From a virus: a stretch of DNA of 44,871 nt. Under the pieces are notes generated by a model, which did not search any database, was not told the origin of the DNA, and worked only from the letters and a program-made list of their open reading frames with translations. Position 1 is the first letter of the stretch; each line of letters opens with the position of its first letter. The DNA lies in the IMG/VR virus record IMGVR_UViG_3300045988_128081, positions 1 to 44,871 of that record. One strand, given 5' to 3'. Below, in pieces: positions 1,838 to 44,739 of the stretch. A program made the translations under genes and the position numbers.

Positions 1838-2617
1838 TTATCCCTGCGAGTATCGGTTGATGAAATACACTTGCCCCTTTCCCGTTACCTTGGGCGTTTT
1901 GCTCACGGTTACATGGCCGTCGGCATGGGTCACGCTGGTTTCTTTGATGCGCATCACACCCAGGTCCATGCTGCGCTGCGTAGGCATGTTCCAGTCTGTG
2001 CCCTTGCGGTTGATCAGATACCCGTCCTTGCGCAGCCGCTCAAACAGGCGGTTCTGCCCCATGTCGATGCCGTTCTGCTTTAGGATTTTTGCCAGTTCGC
2101 CCACAAGGATTTCGCTTTTGCTGGCCGCCACGCTGTCCGCAAACAGCACCTTGGGCGCGTCGGCCTCAATCTTCTGCTGCCTCGCTCGCGCTTCCTCCTC
2201 CGCTGCCAGCCGGGCGTGCCGCTCATCCCGCCACTTTACCGCCAGCTTGGCAAAGGTGTCCGGGCTGCTGAATAGCGCGTCCGTGGCTTCGTCTGTCAGG
2301 TAGGCTCCGTGCTTGCGGATGGACGGCAATACCTCGTCAAACACCCAGGATTCAAATTTTTCGGCATCGGGCAACTGACTGTGCGTTATAAGTCGGTACA
2401 AGTCTCCTTCTGGGATGTATGATATGGACTGAATACCACCTTTTGTAAGGGTGTCGCGTTTCACGACACCACGACAATGACGACTGAGCGCATCCCTAGA
2501 ATTGGAATATCCTAACGATTTCGTTACATCTGAACCGCAAAACAGCGACCTGCCATCTTCTGTGATAATCCTGATCTGCCCAAAATCCTTGTTCTCAAAA
2601 ACCGTCAATTCATTCAT
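1838..2617 (-). CDS. Antirepressor-type protein, Bro-N domain plus KilAC/ANT-like C-terminal domain (259 aa)
   Basis: N-terminus FENKDFGQIRIITEDGRSLFCGSDVTKSLGY...EKFESWVFDEVLPSIRKHGAY matches the Bro-N pattern. C-terminus VLFADSV...LVGELAKILKQNGIDMGQNRLFERLRKDGYL matches the ANT/KilAC pattern. ATGA overlap with the upstream gene. Confidence 0.85.
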   Translation of the reverse strand: MNELTVFENKDFGQIRIITEDGRSLFCGSDVTKSLGYSNSRDALSRHCRGVVKRDTLTKGGIQSISYIPEGDLYRLITHSQLPDAEKFESWVFDEVLPSIRKHGAYLTDEATDALFSSPDTFAKLAVKWRDERHARLAAEEEARARQQKIEADAPKVLFADSVAASKSEILVGELAKILKQNGIDMGQNRLFERLRKDGYLINRKGTDWNMPTQRSMDLGVMRIKETSVTHADGHVTVSKTPKVTGKGQVYFINRYSQG

Positions 2618-2916
2618 ACTGCTTTTCCCTCCTTGCGCAGTTCGTTTTCAGCTCTCATTTTCGCCAACAGCCGGAATAGGCTTAACGCGGCTTCCATGTC
2701 ATCGTCATGGCAATGCAGCGTGGAATATAGCAGGCACCAGCGTTTGCTCATCACTTCATCAGGGTCGCACGCTTCATTTCTCCGTATCGCCCGGCGCCAA
2801 TACTCCACAATTTCCAACACCTGGTCCAGAATCCCCAAATCAAGCGATGAACACTTTTCTACACGCTTGCAGATGTCCGCGCGCTTTTCCGCGATTTTCG
2901 GTTGATTTTTAGCCAT
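2614..2916 (-). CDS. Small helical protein of unknown function (100 aa), middle gene of cassette A
   Basis: ORF track. RBS GGAGG 8 nt upstream. Translationally coupled to the Bro-type gene. Confidence 0.7.
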   Translation of the reverse strand: MAKNQPKIAEKRADICKRVEKCSSLDLGILDQVLEIVEYWRRAIRRNEACDPDEVMSKRWCLLYSTLHCHDDDMEAALSLFRLLAKMRAENELRKEGKAV

Positions 2917-2944
2917 AAAAATACCTCCGTTCGGTCGTTTTGGG

Positions 2945-2992
2945 TTGACCCAAAGGAGGCAGATATGATAAGATTTATCTGCCGACCTTGGG
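2945..2992 (+). promoter_or_regulatory. Sigma-70-like promoter (TTGACC-N18-TAAGAT) on the + strand, embedded in an inverted repeat; cassette A copy
   Basis: -35 at 2945..2950, -10 at 2969..2974. Inverted repeats GGCAGAT (2958..2964)/ATCTGCC (2977..2983) and CCCAAAGG/CCTTGGG flank the -10. The same layout recurs at 30406..30453. Confidence 0.5.
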
Positions 2993-3052
2993 TTGGTAAC
3001 ATAGGATTTCGGGTTCAGTCCGCCAAGAGTGCGCCCGATATCCTATTTTTTT
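2981..3052 (+). ncRNA. Candidate ~70-nt antisense small RNA (cassette A), convergent with and overlapping the 3' end of the RHH gene
   Basis: Predicted start about 7 nt after the TAAGAT -10. Ends in hairpin ATAGGAT/ATCCTAT plus TCGGG/CCCGA followed by TTTTTTT (3001..3052). The loop carries a 19-nt block identical to the cassette B copy. Confidence 0.4.
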
Positions 3053-3219
3053 ACCGCCTGGTATACCATTTCTAATCCTTCGCGCAACACCTCGGCTTTG
3101 GTTTTCCCAGTAGCTTTACAGCAGTACTCCAATTTCTCAGCATCTTCTTGAGTCATACGTAACCGATATTGCAAGGATTTTGGATTTTCAATAGGCGGTC
3201 TCCCTTGCGTGGGGGGCAA
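3043..3219 (-). CDS. Ribbon-helix-helix (Arc/CopG-like) DNA-binding protein (58 aa from a TTG start)
   Basis: GRPPIENPKSLQYRLRMTQEDAEKLEYCCKATGKTKAEVLREGLEMV is a typical RHH beta-alpha-alpha pattern. The track's GTG at 3228 sits inside the SD AAGGAGGTG, so the TTG at 3219 (8 nt after the SD) is preferred. Confidence 0.75.
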   Translation of the reverse strand: MPPTQGRPPIENPKSLQYRLRMTQEDAEKLEYCCKATGKTKAEVLREGLEMVYQAVKK

Positions 3220-3232
3220 TCTTCTCACCTCC

Positions 3233-3277
3233 TTTATTGGATATCCGCATTATATAATGGATATCCAATAAAGTCAA
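3233..3277 (-). promoter_or_regulatory. Consensus-like promoter of cassette A with a perfect 14-bp inverted-repeat operator
   Basis: Minus strand TTGACT (3272..3277)-N17-TATAAT (3249..3254). TTTATTGGATATCC (3233..3246) and GGATATCCAATAAA (3259..3272) bracket the -10. Confidence 0.75.
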
Positions 3278-3359
3278 CCCGTTTTCAAAAAAAATCCTTG
3301 CAAATTTTGTCTGGTTGTGGGAAAATATAGCAAACAGTGCGGTGAAATGAGGGATAATA

Positions 3360-3704
3360 ATGGGATGGGTACTTATGCTCCTCGTGCTTTTGATATATTT
3401 AGCTTACAAATCAAGTTCGGCGAAGAGTAATAAAGGAGTTTGGGAACACGCTTCGGAAGCTGACCTTAACGCTCAAATAATCCGCGCCGAAACAGAAAAG
3501 GTTAGATGTTCTAAAAACGATACGAGATATAGAACTGCGATTAGGTTTTCAGACGGCTTTACTTATTATTCATACAAAACAAATGTGGAACCTGGCTTTT
3601 TCACATACAAAATTTCGATAGACGAAAATCTCGCAAAGGAAATCGTGGAAGATGCTATTGAAGCGCATAGAAAAGCCGTTTTAAAGATACAAAACGCTAA
3701 ATAA
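3360..3704 (+). CDS. Membrane-anchored protein of unknown function (114 aa) in an AT-rich moron
   Basis: ORF track. N-terminal hydrophobic helix MGWVLMLLVLLIYLAY. RBS GAGGG. Local GC is visibly far lower than the flanks. Convergent with the late operon. Confidence 0.7.
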   Translation: MGWVLMLLVLLIYLAYKSSSAKSNKGVWEHASEADLNAQIIRAETEKVRCSKNDTRYRTAIRFSDGFTYYSYKTNVEPGFFTYKISIDENLAKEIVEDAIEAHRKAVLKIQNAK

Positions 3705-3712
3705 CGCCCAAA

Positions 3713-3810
3713 TTGCAACAACCTTGCAACCTTGTAACCTTGCAACCTTGCAACAATCTTGCAACCTTGTAACCTTGCAACCTTGCAACAATCTTGCAAC
3801 CTATTGCAAC
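3713..3810. repeat. Array of 11 TTG(C/T)AAC units with 8-nt (or 10/11-nt) spacing, including two perfect 35-bp higher-order repeats
   Basis: Units start at 3713, 3724, 3732, 3740, 3748, 3759, 3767, 3775, 3783, 3794 and 3804. 3724..3758 is identical to 3759..3793. Confidence 0.95.
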
Positions 3811-3829
3811 CACCCAATCCGCAGAATGA

Positions 3830-28863: not shown

Positions 28864-29277
28864 TTATTTGCTTCGCGCTATTTGTTCCACGGCCAGCATG
28901 GCGGCTCTATGCCAGTAATAATACGTCCGCTTGGATATATTCAGTTTGGCGGCAATCTGGTCCGCGCTCATGCCCATCACATACCGCATATTCAACACAT
29001 TGCGCAAATCCTCCCGGGGCACATGGGCTATCAGGCTATCTACTTCCCTTGCTAGCCGCACATGCCGGGCGGCGGCTTCATCGGCTTTGGCTTGCGCGTC
29101 CGCCGCGGCTATGGCGCAATCCTCCATGGCTGTATGCCCCGTGCCGCCCTGCACCCTCTCGCCGCTGATCGCGCTGGGGGATCTCAGCCCTTCCGCCATC
29201 TGCCGAAAGTGTGCCGCCCGGGCGCTCCATACCGCTACCGCCACCCCTGCCCGCCGGGCATCTTCCAGCAGGTTCAT
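28864..29277 (-). CDS. Sigma-70 region-4-like HTH protein, candidate late-gene activator (137 aa)
   Basis: C-terminus LNMRYVMGMSADQIAAKLNISKRTYYYWHRAAM resembles DUF1492/ArpU/RinA-type phage regulators. Last gene of the early operon. Confidence 0.5.
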   Translation of the reverse strand: MNLLEDARRAGVAVAVWSARAAHFRQMAEGLRSPSAISGERVQGGTGHTAMEDCAIAAADAQAKADEAAARHVRLAREVDSLIAHVPREDLRNVLNMRYVMGMSADQIAAKLNISKRTYYYWHRAAMLAVEQIARSK

Positions 29278-29339: not shown

Positions 29340-30128
29340 TTATGCTTCCTGCCCGGCAGCGTCCCACACGTCATACTTGATCGCCATTTCCTTCACAATC
29401 TGCACATAGCTTTCAATGGCCCGCTTGTCCTCCGCTACCACGTCCAGATAGTTCAGCTTGTCCCGCTTGCTTCGGCACATGCCGTCCTCCGCCGCACGCA
29501 GCCGCTTGTTGTTCAGGCGGCGCTTCAGGTCAATGCCGAACCGCTCCAGCATCAGCTTGTAAATGTCGCCGTTCACATCCCGGATGTAGCTCACCCCGCC
29601 CAGCTTTTCCGCAATGCGCACAATCATGGTCTTGCACTCCCGCCGCCAGTCGTTGGGGTTCAGCGCTACAATATCGCTGATGGCTCCCACCTTCTTTTCC
29701 ACCGTGTCCTGCCGGCCCTCCAGCGCTTTCTGTTTCTGCTCCATGGCCTGCATGGCGGCCACGCTCTGGGCAAACAGTTCCAGCGGCGATAACGGCTTGG
29801 ACTGGTATCCGCCTGTCTTGCGAATCTGGGGGATGACTTCATCCGCAATCAGCGCCTGAAACTTCTCCGCGGTTTCGTTCTTGGCCTTCATCGCCAGCCG
29901 GTAGAAGATGTTTTCGGGGATGTACTCAGGCAATTTTTCATCGCAACTTGTTGCGATGCCCAATTCGTTCAAGTACTTACGCACCGTGCGCCAACGTACA
30001 CACTCGTTTCCACTGGCTGCGATTTCGACAAATCCCAATCCCCGCGCCACGGTTTCCAGTTTCAGATAGGCAACCCCGTTTTCCTCGTAGCAGTCAATTC
30101 CCTTGATGTTCATAATCTCGTTATTCAT
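29340..30128 (-). CDS. Antirepressor-type protein, Bro-N-like N-terminus with a different helical C-terminal domain (262 aa)
   Basis: IPENIFYRLAMKAKNETAEKFQALIADEVIPQIRKTGGY matches the Bro-N C-terminal signature. ATGA overlap with the upstream gene. Confidence 0.75.
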   Translation of the reverse strand: MNNEIMNIKGIDCYEENGVAYLKLETVARGLGFVEIAASGNECVRWRTVRKYLNELGIATSCDEKLPEYIPENIFYRLAMKAKNETAEKFQALIADEVIPQIRKTGGYQSKPLSPLELFAQSVAAMQAMEQKQKALEGRQDTVEKKVGAISDIVALNPNDWRRECKTMIVRIAEKLGGVSYIRDVNGDIYKLMLERFGIDLKRRLNNKRLRAAEDGMCRSKRDKLNYLDVVAEDKRAIESYVQIVKEMAIKYDVWDAAGQEA

Positions 30129-30376
30129 TTCTCATTCTCCTTTTGGGTCTTCGTGTTGTCCAGCACGTCGGATAGCCGCGTGCTGGCCTTGTTCAACATG
30201 TTCAGCAGCAGTGACGACAGGTTAATCATGTCCTCCCGGAATACGCCCGCATTCCAGATAAATTCCTTCTGCGGTACATCCATAAACTGAATGCAGTACG
30301 TCCGCATCAGGCTGGTCATCTGGTCCAGTTCTACCTTGGTCCGTTCTACCTGGTTCCGCATCTCCATATCCGGCAT
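30125..30376 (-). CDS. Small helical protein of unknown function (83 aa), middle gene of cassette B
   Basis: Start at MPDMEMRN (ATG 30376), AAGGAGG 9 nt upstream. No visible similarity to the cassette A counterpart. Confidence 0.65.
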   Translation of the reverse strand: MPDMEMRNQVERTKVELDQMTSLMRTYCIQFMDVPQKEFIWNAGVFREDMINLSSLLLNMLNKASTRLSDVLDNTKTQKENEK

Positions 30377-30405
30377 ATAAAAATCCTCCTTGTTGGTCGT
30401 AGGGG

Positions 30406-30453
30406 TTGACCAAAGGAGGGCAAGCATGTTAAGATTTACTTGCCTACCTTTGG
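30406..30453 (+). promoter_or_regulatory. Sigma-70-like promoter (TTGACC-N18-TAAGAT) embedded in an inverted repeat; cassette B copy
   Basis: -35 at 30406..30411, -10 at 30430..30435. GGGCAAG (30418..30424)/CTTGCC (30439..30444) and CCAAAGG/CCTTTGG flank the -10. The inner stem sequence differs from copy A but stays complementary. Confidence 0.5.
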
Positions 30454-30515
30454 TGGGTGTCGCCTGTGTACTGTTCAGTCCGCCAAGAGTGAAACAGTTC
30501 ACAGGTTTTCTTTTT
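30442..30515 (+). ncRNA. Candidate ~70-nt antisense small RNA (cassette B)
   Basis: Ends in hairpin CCTGTG-ACTG...CAGT-CACAGG followed by TTTTCTTTTT (30463..30515). The loop has the 19-nt block GTTCAGTCCGCCAAGAGTG, identical to 3013..3031. The 3' arm overlaps the TGA of the RHH gene. Confidence 0.4.
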
Positions 30516-30708: not shown

Positions 30709-30737
30709 ATTATAATTTTGATGTGTTAGAAAGTCAA
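30709..30737 (-). promoter_or_regulatory. Consensus-like promoter of cassette B
   Basis: Minus strand TTGACT (30732..30737)-N17-TATAAT (30709..30714). The upstream tttttttcaaaaggggg tract is homologous to cassette A. Confidence 0.65.
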
Positions 30738-41827: not shown

Positions 41828-42493
41828 CTACGCCGTAGCCTGTTTGCTCAAATACCATTCCAGTTTCATCTTCCGCTGCTGGAAGTCCGGCTCGGCCACC
41901 ATTAGTCCCAGGTCAATGGCCTGTAGCTCGTCCAGCTTCTCAATCTGCTCCTGGGTCAGCCAGGGGCGTATGCTGCCAGTTTCCAGCGGAATCCCGTGCT
42001 CAATCTTGAATTGCTTAGCCGTCATGCCCAGCACCAGCCGGTTCAGCATGTCGCACTCGTTGGAGTAGTGGTAGGGCTTCGCCTCCGGGTTCAGCAGCCG
42101 AATTTGCGCCGTCAGCCTGGGAAACTGGTGCCTGGCCGATACCATGGCGGCAATGTGCGCTTCCATCTCGTTAAAGCGCTTAATGTAGGCTTCCTTGAAG
42201 GCCATAGCCCGCGGTCCGGTGTAGCCCATCACCAGCATGGTAAAGCCGTCCCGGGTCATGGCGTAACGGGGAAGCGTTCTGCCGGTGGAATCCTTGTAGG
42301 TGGACTGTACAAAATTAAGCCGTCGGAATTCTTCACTCAATCCAGATTTGGATTCAGTGATTTTAGCGATGTCACGCAACACATGAAAATGTTCTTTCTC
42401 AAACGCCGCCGCTACAAACCGGCTGTCCAGTCTGGCCGTGTCCCGCATGTCGCAGAACAGGCCGCAGTCGTTCATGGGAATCAGTTCTTTCAT
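41828..42493 (-). CDS. Rha-family phage regulatory protein (221 aa)
   Basis: RLDSRFVAAAFEKEHFHVLRDIAKI matches the Phage_pRha signature. Second gene of the early operon. Confidence 0.8.
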   Translation of the reverse strand: MKELIPMNDCGLFCDMRDTARLDSRFVAAAFEKEHFHVLRDIAKITESKSGLSEEFRRLNFVQSTYKDSTGRTLPRYAMTRDGFTMLVMGYTGPRAMAFKEAYIKRFNEMEAHIAAMVSARHQFPRLTAQIRLLNPEAKPYHYSNECDMLNRLVLGMTAKQFKIEHGIPLETGSIRPWLTQEQIEKLDELQAIDLGLMVAEPDFQQRKMKLEWYLSKQATA

Positions 42494-42896: not shown

Positions 42897-43268
42897 GTGT
42901 ACACCAACAAACTGGTCACCGTATTTAGGGAACGCCTTACTGACTTGTGTAATGAAAGTCCTCTGAATGATACGGAAATCGCAAAAGACATTGGAGTTTC
43001 TAAGCAAACTGTTAGCGCATGGAAAAGTGGGGAACGCTCTCCCAAACAGCCAACCATTGAAAAAATTGCAAGAGTTTTCAATGTAAATGTTGATTGGTTG
43101 CTTGGGTGGGATGTCCCTAAGCGCCAGGAAGGGTACGAAAATAAAAAGCTCACCCCAGAGGATGAGCTTGATGACGATCTAACCGCTATGCTTACACGGC
43201 TGTCCGCGGCAGAACGTCTTCGGGTTCGCGCCTTTGCAGAAGGTCTGTTAGCATCTCACGAAGAATGA
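42897..43268 (+). CDS. CI-like XRE-family repressor (123 aa, GTG start)
   Basis: DTEIAKDIGVSKQTVSAWKSGERSPKQPTIEKIARVFNVNVDWLLGW is a classic HTH_3. AGGAGG 7 nt upstream of the GTG. Followed by the integrase on the same strand. Confidence 0.85.
   Translation: MYTNKLVTVFRERLTDLCNESPLNDTEIAKDIGVSKQTVSAWKSGERSPKQPTIEKIARVFNVNVDWLLGWDVPKRQEGYENKKLTPEDELDDDLTAMLTRLSAAERLRVRAFAEGLLASHEE
43137..43169 (-). terminator. Intrinsic terminator on the minus strand embedded in the repressor coding sequence
   Basis: Minus strand AAGCTCA-tcctctgggg-TGAGCTT followed by TTTATTTTC. Confidence 0.55.
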
Positions 43269-43323: not shown

Positions 43324-43358
43324 CGCTGTCTCCTTCCGTCCACATCGACCGTGTTCCC

Positions 43359-43387
43359 ATTATACAAACATTTGTTCCCATTGTCAA
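43359..43387 (-). promoter_or_regulatory. Perfect consensus sigma-70 promoter pointing into the repressor gene
   Basis: Minus strand TTGACA (43382..43387)-N17-TATAAT (43359..43364). Direct repeats TGTTCCCATT at 43352..43361 and 43373..43382 (21-bp spacing) overlap the -10 and -35/spacer. Confidence 0.75.
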
Positions 43388-43590
43388 TGCCGAATTGGCT
43401 GTGGCCGTTTCTCCACTGGCAGCATTCGCCAGCGCCTCCATTCTGGTTTTGGTCTGCGGCGCATTCCTGTCGCCTCCATTCTTTAACTAGAATGGTAAAC
43501 ATTTTTCCAATCATTGCAACACTTTCGACAAAAAAAGCGCAATATTGGCAAAACCTTAACATCCATCCAGCAAGAAAGGAAAAAGCTACC

Positions 43591-44739
43591 ATGTTCTGTA
43601 TCAAATGCAAACAAACCATTCCTGATGGCTCCGCGTTCTGCCTTCATTGTGGGGCAAACCAGCAGTCCGCCCCAAAGTCCTCCAAGCCCCGCAGCCGCCC
43701 CAATGGCACTGGCAGCGCCTACAAGCGCGGCAAAACCTGGACAGCGTGCTGGATCGCCGGTTGGAAGCCCGCTCCTGACGGACGCCTGCTGGCAAACAAA
43801 CGCACCAAGGGCGGCTTTCCCACCAAAAAGGAAGCCTTGGAATATGTCTCCACCCTCAAAACCCAAGGCAGCCGTAACCCGGATGCCAACATCACTTTCG
43901 CGTCCCTTTTTGAGCGGTTTGAGGCCCAGCATGACGAACGGGTGAAAGATACCACCATGGCAGGCTATAAATCCGCTTACAAGCATTTTAACGATATTTC
44001 TGCCATGCGCTTTGCTTCTATCGGCGTGGACGATCTGCAATACTGCATCGACGCCGTTCCGGGCAAGCGCACCCGGCAGGTGATGAAAGCTCTTGCCAGC
44101 CTTCTGTATAAATACGCTGGCAGCCGTCAAATCGTTGATACCAACCTTGCTCAGTATATTTACGTTGGAAAAGGAGAACAGATCGAACGCCCCGCTTTCA
44201 CCATGGCGCAGCTGAACACGGTTCGCAATGCCGTCGGCAGCGTACCGTATACTGATTATATCCTCTGTATGTGTTATCTGGGCTTTCGCCCAAACGAAAT
44301 GCTTTCCCTTACCAAAAAGGCTTATCATGAGGAAGACGGCGCATCTTACCTGGTAGGCGGTTTCAAAACAGAGGCAGGCACCAACCGCAAAGTTACCATT
44401 TCCCCCAAAATCCTGCCCATCATTAGACGCCGCCTGGCGGATAAGTCCTCCATCTACCTTTTCCCCAAGCAGGATGGGTCTGCCATGCGCGACGCTTATT
44501 TCCGCGATATCTTCTATGAAACGCTGAACCGGCTCGGCATCCAGCCTATCCCGAAGGCCGGAGAGCGGGCCCATCTGGTGCCGTACTCTTGCCGCCACAC
44601 ATTCGCCAATCTTATGAAGAATGTCACCGGCAGCGACACTGACAAGGCCGCCCTGATGGGCCATGCTGATGCTTCCATGACTAAAAAATATCAGTCCGAA
44701 GAACTCGAAAACCTTGTTCGTATCACAAACGCTCTATGA
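43591..44739 (+). CDS. int: Tyrosine integrase with N-terminal zinc ribbon (382 aa)
   Basis: Start at MFCIKCKQ (ATG 43591, AAAGGA RBS). CIKC...CLHCG zinc ribbon. GFRPNEML, CRHTFANL and GHADASMTKKYQ fit the R...H-x-x-R...Y catalytic boxes. Adjacent to att. Confidence 0.9.
   Translation: MFCIKCKQTIPDGSAFCLHCGANQQSAPKSSKPRSRPNGTGSAYKRGKTWTACWIAGWKPAPDGRLLANKRTKGGFPTKKEALEYVSTLKTQGSRNPDANITFASLFERFEAQHDERVKDTTMAGYKSAYKHFNDISAMRFASIGVDDLQYCIDAVPGKRTRQVMKALASLLYKYAGSRQIVDTNLAQYIYVGKGEQIERPAFTMAQLNTVRNAVGSVPYTDYILCMCYLGFRPNEMLSLTKKAYHEEDGASYLVGGFKTEAGTNRKVTISPKILPIIRRRLADKSSIYLFPKQDGSAMRDAYFRDIFYETLNRLGIQPIPKAGERAHLVPYSCRHTFANLMKNVTGSDTDKAALMGHADASMTKKYQSEELENLVRITNAL

Follow-up and report, generated by a model that had tools for sequence, protein, structure and literature searches.

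Antirepressors decide whether a prophage stays silent. The c4 RNA of phages P1 and P7 is transcribed upstream of its target and from the same strand, with the RBS as the site of pairing, and RNAI of pT181 works by leader refolding in transcription attenuation. A review of the field lists only two antisense RNAs acting on antirepressors, sar of P22 and c4 of P1/P7, whose phages are all enterobacterial, and names no Gram-positive case of an antisense RNA combined with an antirepressor (PMC12197685). In P22, sar fills the spacer between arc and ant, begins beside the start codon of ant and covers the SD of that gene (PMC2629481). RNAII of pMV158 is a 48-nt RNA with one hairpin; its pairing site lies just ahead of the repB signals, and direct hindrance of ribosomes is its presumed mode of action (PMC4485353). 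RNAIII of pIP501 was described as a 'riboswitch-like induction of premature termination' (PMC5415839).

Here we analysed a spacer element that occurs twice in the window, i.e. in the whole stretch of 44,871 nucleotides under study, between genes for RHH repressors and small genes that we call X. Its closest counterparts are P22 Arc/sar/Ant and pMV158 CopG/RNAII. As in P22 immI (Pant-arc-ant plus sar), the order is an Arc-type RHH gene and, downstream of it, an antirepressor gene (PMC2629481, PMC12197685), and the position of one cassette at the end of the late operon recalls the 'ant moron' of P22. The sar-type layout, with a convergent RNA gene between the Arc-type RHH gene and the antirepressor gene, is also predicted here: like the ~68-70-nt sar, the RNA would have two hairpins and fill the spacer, and its terminator would abut the RHH stop codon. 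The element nevertheless falls outside the sar family, to which it has no sequence or model similarity. RF00262 gave no match at E<=10 in window positions 2850-3300, nor did the window or 19 related loci yield one at the gathering threshold, whereas sar in P22 immI, the positive control, scores 97.8 bits. Unlike sar, the predicted RNA is not complementary to the RBS, starts from a promoter within the spacer and would need an inverted-repeat relay to act. Moreover, in the window the small gene X is interposed, the hosts belong to the Clostridia and not to the enterobacteria, and no Mnt-like second repressor was seen.

With pMV158 the element shares an RHH repressor gene followed by a countertranscript in the spacer, a Gram-positive host, an RNA composed of a 5' segment, a terminator hairpin and a U-tail, and a target that begins beside the RHH stop codon and excludes the translation signals of the downstream gene (PMC4485353). 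The first gene of each cassette is in fact of the CopG/Arc family and has a predicted operator at the promoter from which it is transcribed. The SD, however, is ~50 nt away here and not immediately adjacent; the controlled gene of pMV158 is a plasmid replication initiator, whereas antirepressor-type genes of a temperate phage are concerned here; and the pMV158 account consulted mentions no inverted repeat around the RNAII promoter (PMC4485353). The antisense-RNA-induced refolding of a leader resembles that of pIP501 RNAIII/repR, but the inhibitory helix is a transcription terminator in the pIP501 type and would be an SD-masking helix, with no U-tract on the sense strand, in the present element; this comparison concerns the mode of action and not family membership. 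Finally, a small phage RNA that blocks antirepressor synthesis, as predicted here, is a feature of P1/P7 c4 (icd-ant) (PMC12197685), although Rfam scans gave no match to the C4 family.

Two RHH-antirepressor cassettes and their spacers

The window is the ~44.9-kb genome of a temperate phage, and it is circular, since its two ends have 55 bp in common (1-55 = 44817-44871). Directly past the integrase gene (43351-44739) lies a tRNA 3' fragment (44827-44871, minus strand; Rfam tRNA, 31.7 bits), which is probably the attP core. We also identified genes for an XRE-type repressor (42897-43268, plus strand), a late activator (28864-29277), a primase/helicase and a MuF-type protein of 2802 aa. Cassette A is located on the minus strand at the far end of the late operon and comprises RHH_A (3043-3219), X_A (2614-2916, minus strand, start codon 2914-2916) and, overlapping X_A, the antirepressor gene Ant_A (1838-2617, minus strand), in whose product domain searches found Bro-N and ANT. 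Cassette B, on the minus strand of the early region, is composed of RHH_B (30499 to approximately 30687), X_B (30125-30376, minus strand) and a Bro-N antirepressor gene (29340-30128, minus strand), so that in both cassettes the gene downstream of X encodes a Bro-N antirepressor. The SD of X_A is GGAGG at 2924..2928 (minus strand) and that of X_B lies at 30385-30389.

RHH_A is an Arc/CopG-like repressor of 58 aa, the last codons of which (AAA AAA TAG) overlap the antisense terminator described below. The RHH_1 profile scores 21.5 bits for RHH_B (cut-off 20.5) and a weak 14.6 bits for RHH_A, and both proteins match phrog_876 (4e-13 to 5e-15; 3.9e-13 for RHH_A). Profile search found no RHH gene in the window other than these two, and neither a pattern search nor covariance model R1 found a third copy of the spacer element there. 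A Rha-like antirepressor-type gene (41828-42493, minus strand; phrog_2657, 1.8e-58) near the XRE-type repressor gene, which is on the other strand, brings the antirepressor-like genes of the phage to three; neither an RHH gene nor an antisense element is present at this gene. Adjoining cassette A, between the gene at 3360-3704 (plus strand) and the end of the MuF-type gene, positions 3713-3812 hold ~10 copies of the 8-mer TTGCAACC/TTGTAACC with a higher-order period of 35 (98% match), which may be a protein-binding array.

The sequence-only reading had listed, for the spacers 2917..3052 and 30377..30515, a plus-strand promoter, an inverted repeat around its -10, a second hairpin and a T-run, between flanking proteins that are distant or unrelated, and each of these features was found where it had been placed. 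The two RHH proteins are 31% identical, and the X proteins, which have no family matches, appear unrelated. The antisense promoter TTGACC-N18-TAAGAT is present on the plus strand of both copies, at 2945..2974 (TTGACC 2945-2950, TAAGAT 2969-2974) and 30406..30435 (TTGACC 30406-30411, TAAGAT 30430-30435). Both match 9/12 consensus positions and carry in addition an extended -10 TG (TG-n-TAAGAT), absent from the earlier description; by consensus match they conform to the sigma-70 extended -10 type, with hexamers 16-18 nt apart and TG one base before the -10. The inverted repeat, which we name H2 (2949..2992 and 30410..30453, read on the minus strand), indeed has an inner stem that changes but remains complementary (GGCAGAT/ATCTGCC in A, GGCAAG/CTTGCC in B) and a fixed outer stem (CCAAAGG/CCTTTGG).

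Downstream on the plus strand we added a 7-bp 5' hairpin, H5 (2981..2997; 30442..30458), which through G-U/U-G pairs can form on this strand only. It is followed by the second hairpin of the earlier description, H1 (3001..3046; 30463..30505), whose stems are unrelated between the copies but enclose, as had been claimed, an identical 19-nt loop block, GTTCAGTCCGCCAAGAGTG (3013-3031; 30473-30491), found twice in the window against 0.01 matches expected. The T-run (3046-3052; 30506-30515) occurs on the plus strand only. H1 has the form of an intrinsic terminator, a 13-bp stem followed by UUUUUUU on the plus strand, and was missed by a simple terminator scanner because its loop exceeds 8 nt. The RHH stop codons fall inside the terminator (3043-3045 in A, 30499-30501 in B), and the 3' end of RHH_B overlaps the 3' arm of H1 and the U-tract. 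With a transcription start deduced from the position of the -10, the predicted antisense RNAs, each composed of H5, H1 and the U-tract, would span 2981..3052 (~72 nt) and 30442..30515 (~70 nt) on the plus strand. Folding of the spacers is, on both strands, far more stable than that of shuffled sequence (z -4.2 to -5.1).

Strand polarity and covariation among homologous spacers

RHH-anchored searches gave 31 distinct spacers in a first collection, to which more were added later (loci are given below as L with a number; winA and winB are the window's own). More than 25 sequence-distinct spacers of gut phage contigs and Clostridia MAGs have the same layout downstream of an RHH gene, the sources being IMG/VR contigs, MAGs of Clostridia, Ruminococcus, Faecousia and Ruminococcaceae, and gut metagenome assemblies. 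Read in mRNA sense, the order is RHH stop codon, A-run and H1, H2, and then the SD and the next gene, and the first or second downstream gene is of antirepressor type (Bro-N, ANT, AntA, ORF6N or Rha) in 10/10 other loci scanned. An Rfam scan assigned no family to the window or 19 related loci, and blastn against INPHARED phages gave no match. Covariance model R1 (promoter, H2 and H5) finds only the window-type subfamily and two elements in L043; it scores 80.2 bits on copy B, a training sequence, and has no matches in 20 control loci. Relatives of the winA H1 stem were not found in IMG/VR; they were found instead, in L092 and L093, through relatives of the RHH protein. Several of the small first ORFs after the element in L030, L042, L032, L033 and L016 encode a C-terminal Y-G-Y/F..G motif. 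Stacking of RHH modules also occurs: L043 has three tandem RHH genes (685-1780), of which the second is followed by an R1 match of 52.9 bits and the third by one of 29.2 bits, and in L037 the element downstream of an RHH gene (85-255) precedes another RHH gene, which has a separate promoter and TGGGCTACA repeats.

The homologues speak for one strand. An antisense sigma-70 promoter occupies the same place in 31/31 distinct spacers, mostly with the extended -10 TG, and promoters with at least 10/12 matches were found on the antisense strand in 17/21 lineages and on the sense strand in 0/21. The 8 nt after H1 contain on average 6.4 T on the antisense and 0.76 T on the sense strand (21 lineages); a sense-strand attenuator was considered and rejected, since no U-tract follows H1 on that strand. 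Among 302 pairs of the H1 cores, 8 are G-U when read on the antisense strand and none when read on the sense strand, and a comparison of the H1 hairpins of L009 and L012 shows G-U to A-U changes. In the window-type subfamily, H5 is paired at 7/7 positions on the antisense strand versus 4-5/7 on the sense strand. Predicted RNAs consist of a 5' hairpin and a terminator across lineages, with lengths of 65-90 nt in most of them and about 130 nt in L046 and L048.

The stems also covary. In 25 distinct H1 stems, 94.8% of the cells in the lower 10 bp pair, versus 46% after shuffling and 38-48% when the partner is slid along, and the covariation score of 1.26 (0.26 in shuffles) was reached by 0/500 shuffles; the H1 alignment was anchored on structure and hence leans towards structure. 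We used this structure-anchored count because the stems are too divergent for plain MAFFT and RNAalifold, which gave no consensus for H1. H5 is 91% paired, with covariation reached by 1/500 shuffles and one position that takes five pair types (G-U, U-G, U-A, C-G and G-C). H2 of the window-type subfamily is 92% paired, its inner stem switches between GC, AU, CG and UA, and the score was reached by 0/500 shuffles. Covariation is strong, and the proposal of the sequence-only reading of a ~70-nt convergent plus-strand RNA is strongly supported by the comparison of promoters, U-tracts, G-U pairs and H5. Promoter, terminator, strand-specific structure, covariation and gene context are established by sequence and comparison, and they point to a small convergent antisense RNA gene at this place, which we regard as very probable.

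It could be argued that no antisense RNA is made, that the promoter hexamers are incidental and that the hairpins serve the mRNA only, in processing or stability or as a leader that masks the SD and uncouples RHH expression from that of X and Ant. Both hairpins do fold in the mRNA (z -4.2 to -4.4), and the CCUCC/GGAGG pairing treated below is intramolecular. We consider this explanation highly improbable, however, given that conservation of the TG-bearing hexamers and of the U-tracts is confined to the antisense strand and that all or nearly all wobble pairs of H1 and H5 become A.C mismatches in the mRNA. Most RHH proteins, moreover, end in Lys-Lys-stop, and the AAA-rich codons (AAAAAA) at the end of most RHH genes template the U-tract.

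The leader of gene X and the H2 inverted repeat

In the mRNA, H2_A has a 5' arm at 2977-2992, the proposed anti-anti-SD, and a 3' arm at 2949-2964. The 3' arm reads (G)CCUCCUUUGG, a sequence that we take to resemble the 3' end of 16S rRNA, with the SD of X ~25 nt downstream; its anti-SD CCUCC is the complement of 2955-2959 in A and of 30415-30419 in B. The antisense -10 sits in the loop of H2 and the predicted RNA starts at the arm boundary, so the complementarity of this RNA extends over the 5' arm and whatever lies before that arm, and leaves out the 3' arm. Both arms are present only in the mRNA and not in the antisense RNA. The predicted RNA is separated from the SD by more than 30 nt in all loci modelled, the 5' end of that of cassette A stopping ~53 nt short of the SD of X_A, and its mode of action, judged from folding models, is probably indirect and based on refolding.

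The folding models support the second proposal of the sequence-only reading, in which CCUCC pairs with the SD of X, and the two proposals are best combined into one mechanism and not treated as alternatives. Over 22 loci, the mean unpaired probability of the SD from the partition function falls from 0.345 in the free mRNA to 0.152 when the part complementary to the antisense RNA is blocked (Wilcoxon 2.6e-5, an optimistic p-value because the loci are phylogenetically related), and from 0.40 to 0.001 in winA and 0.32 to 0.10 in winB. The native 5' arm of H2 gives a mean SD accessibility of 0.337, against 0.166 with shuffled arms (0.32 vs 0.006 in winA, 0.32 vs 0.10 in winB), and surpasses all 40 shuffled arms in 12/20 loci. 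In the same models the effect is absent from L016, L065 and L032, and in L007 and L036 the SD is buried even without the antisense RNA. These models are thermodynamic and ignore ribosomes and co-transcriptional folding, and an action of the antisense RNA through this SD relay is a tentative suggestion, to which we lean a little less than to its opposite.

We hypothesize, as the rather more probable reading, that each spacer constitutes two interlocked regulators, an antisense RNA and a folding mRNA leader, of the RHH-X-antirepressor operon; from the features above we infer the transcript, its start site, the relay and the physiological role. A constitutive convergent promoter would produce the ~70-nt cis-antisense RNA with H5 and the intrinsic terminator H1, the U-tract of which would be templated by the last Lys codons and the stop codon of the RHH gene. 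In the operon mRNA alone, the 5' arm of H2 would lock the 3' arm and leave the SD of X free. Pairing of the antisense RNA would strip the 5' arm from the 3' arm, and the freed anti-SD would then pair with the SD of X ~25 nt downstream, so that translation of X would fall and, by coupling, that of the overlapping antirepressor gene as well. The RHH protein would separately shut the operon promoter at its own operator, and the two layers together would keep the antirepressor low unless transcription outruns the antisense RNA.

The convergent promoter could instead act mainly on the DNA, with polymerase collision or occlusion cutting read-through into X and ant, the RNA being a by-product and the terminator only shielding the RHH gene from antisense transcription. 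The sense and antisense promoters do converge face to face, ~300 nt apart, with a strong promoter (11/12) on the sense side; conservation of the terminator is on the antisense strand, and the predicted RNA does not cover the SD. We nevertheless judge this unlikely as the main mode of action, since H5, which plays no part in termination, is maintained by G-U/U-G and compensatory changes that preserve pairing only in a plus-strand RNA, and since the arrangement of H2, anti-SD and SD recurs across lineages. Transcriptional interference and RNA pairing are compatible with each other.

The inverted repeat over the antisense -10 had also been suggested to be the operator of the RHH protein, which the comparison does not support. 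The sense promoters (TTGACT-17-TATAAT, minus strand) are strong and located at 3249..3277 in A and at 30709..30737 in B, where an imperfect inverted repeat surrounds the -10. In A, GGATATCC repeats (3239-3246 and 3259-3266) flank the -10 of the sense promoter and are the probable RHH operator. In the loci L007-L093, the repeats flanking the RHH-promoter -10 covary with the beta-strand of the RHH protein: LQYRLRMT (winA, L086, L092, L093 in part) goes with GGATATCC-type repeats, TRIRMSD with TGTGTCACC repeats and other beta-strands with other repeats, pairs that would constitute a small natural specificity table for the RHH family. These repeats are unrelated to the H2 arms, which do not track the RHH type. 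The H1 loop was likewise rejected as RHH operator, since the operators are located at the sense promoter, where they vary together with the RHH beta-strand.

More generally, H2 could be a DNA operator at which a dimeric regulator (RHH, X, the phage XRE repressor or a host factor) switches the antisense promoter, an inverted repeat centred on the -10 being a classic operator layout. The G-U pairs of H2 clearly favour neither RNA strand (8 sense vs 5 antisense across the family), and in L082, L084 and L085, of the window-type subfamily, H2 pairs better on the antisense strand; this ambiguity leaves room for a role of H2 at the DNA level. Yet the inner arms change compensatorily (GGCAGAT, GGCAAG, GGCATG and GGCACGC) while the outer arms are fixed, which fits base pairing better than base-specific protein contacts. 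In addition, identical outer arms accompany five different RHH beta-strands and a single beta-strand is found with many different arms, the RHH-specific repeats are at the other promoter, and the X proteins are unrelated between cassettes that have H2 in common. An operator function of H2 is therefore, in our estimate, improbable.

The H1 loop and the meaning of the element

The H1 loops of the family contain a common motif, CUU(U)GGU-N-RGG, which is on the antisense RNA in most lineages and on the mRNA in winA, winB, L080, L031, L092 and L093, as well as in 14/15 loci of one clade. In this clade (L052-L071; 15 contigs, 89-95% identical), the 41-nt terminator hairpin of L059 (1676-1716) is the exact reverse complement of the other 14; read from its sequence, L059 is a natural hairpin-loop inversion inside a putative regulatory element. 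In the relatives nearest to cassette A (RHH 90% identical), H2 and H5 are the same but H1 is another one, with opposite loop polarity, whereas L092 and L093 carry a winA-like H1, which indicates that H1 modules have been shuffled between cassettes.

Searches with a 16-mer of the loop in IMG/VR and an 18-mer in JGI metagenomes gave only chance matches in unrelated contexts, and the closest relative, L080, escaped exact search because it differs by 1 nt. Inside the window, a search for a trans target of the loop gave one 10-mer only, which is at chance level. The loop was rejected as a second pairing site for the linker or the H2 5' arm (mean z 0.02) and as an anti-SD for the RBS of X (mean z -0.13). 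In its G/U-rich form (UUGGURRGG), the motif together with the complementary sequence presumably resembles the two strands of 16S rRNA helix 11 (UUGGUGAGGUAACGG / CUCACCAAGGC), a likeness for which a chance match was estimated at roughly 0.1. The cross-cassette duplexes have predicted energies of -58 and -61 kcal/mol, compared with a mean of -35 and a best value of -48 for 29 other spacers, and these strong duplexes make cross-talk between cassettes A and B possible. With identical loops, each antisense RNA could also dock on the mRNA of the other cassette and couple the early and late antirepressor modules; alternatively, the conserved loop may recruit a common host factor. That the element is a three-state leader switch with the antisense promoter in the anti-anti-SD loop and, in addition, a 12-19-nt invertible loop 'address' usable from either partner RNA is, like these two ideas on the loop, a speculative and rather doubtful extension.

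Taken at the level of sequence comparison, the element is a widespread and undescribed family of predicted antisense RNAs in phages of gut Clostridia, whose design is itself a variant of known systems. If this is true, it would extend the logic of antisense RNA and antirepressor to abundant uncultured temperate phages of human-gut Clostridia, and would add a well-populated RNA family to those in Rfam. A compact piece of DNA would then encode a promoter, an anti-SD, its decoy and the C-terminus of a repressor together, and the element would offer a natural test case for hairpin-loop inversion in regulatory RNA. Mutation of the antisense -10 would provide a concrete handle to predict or engineer prophage induction in gut bacteria.
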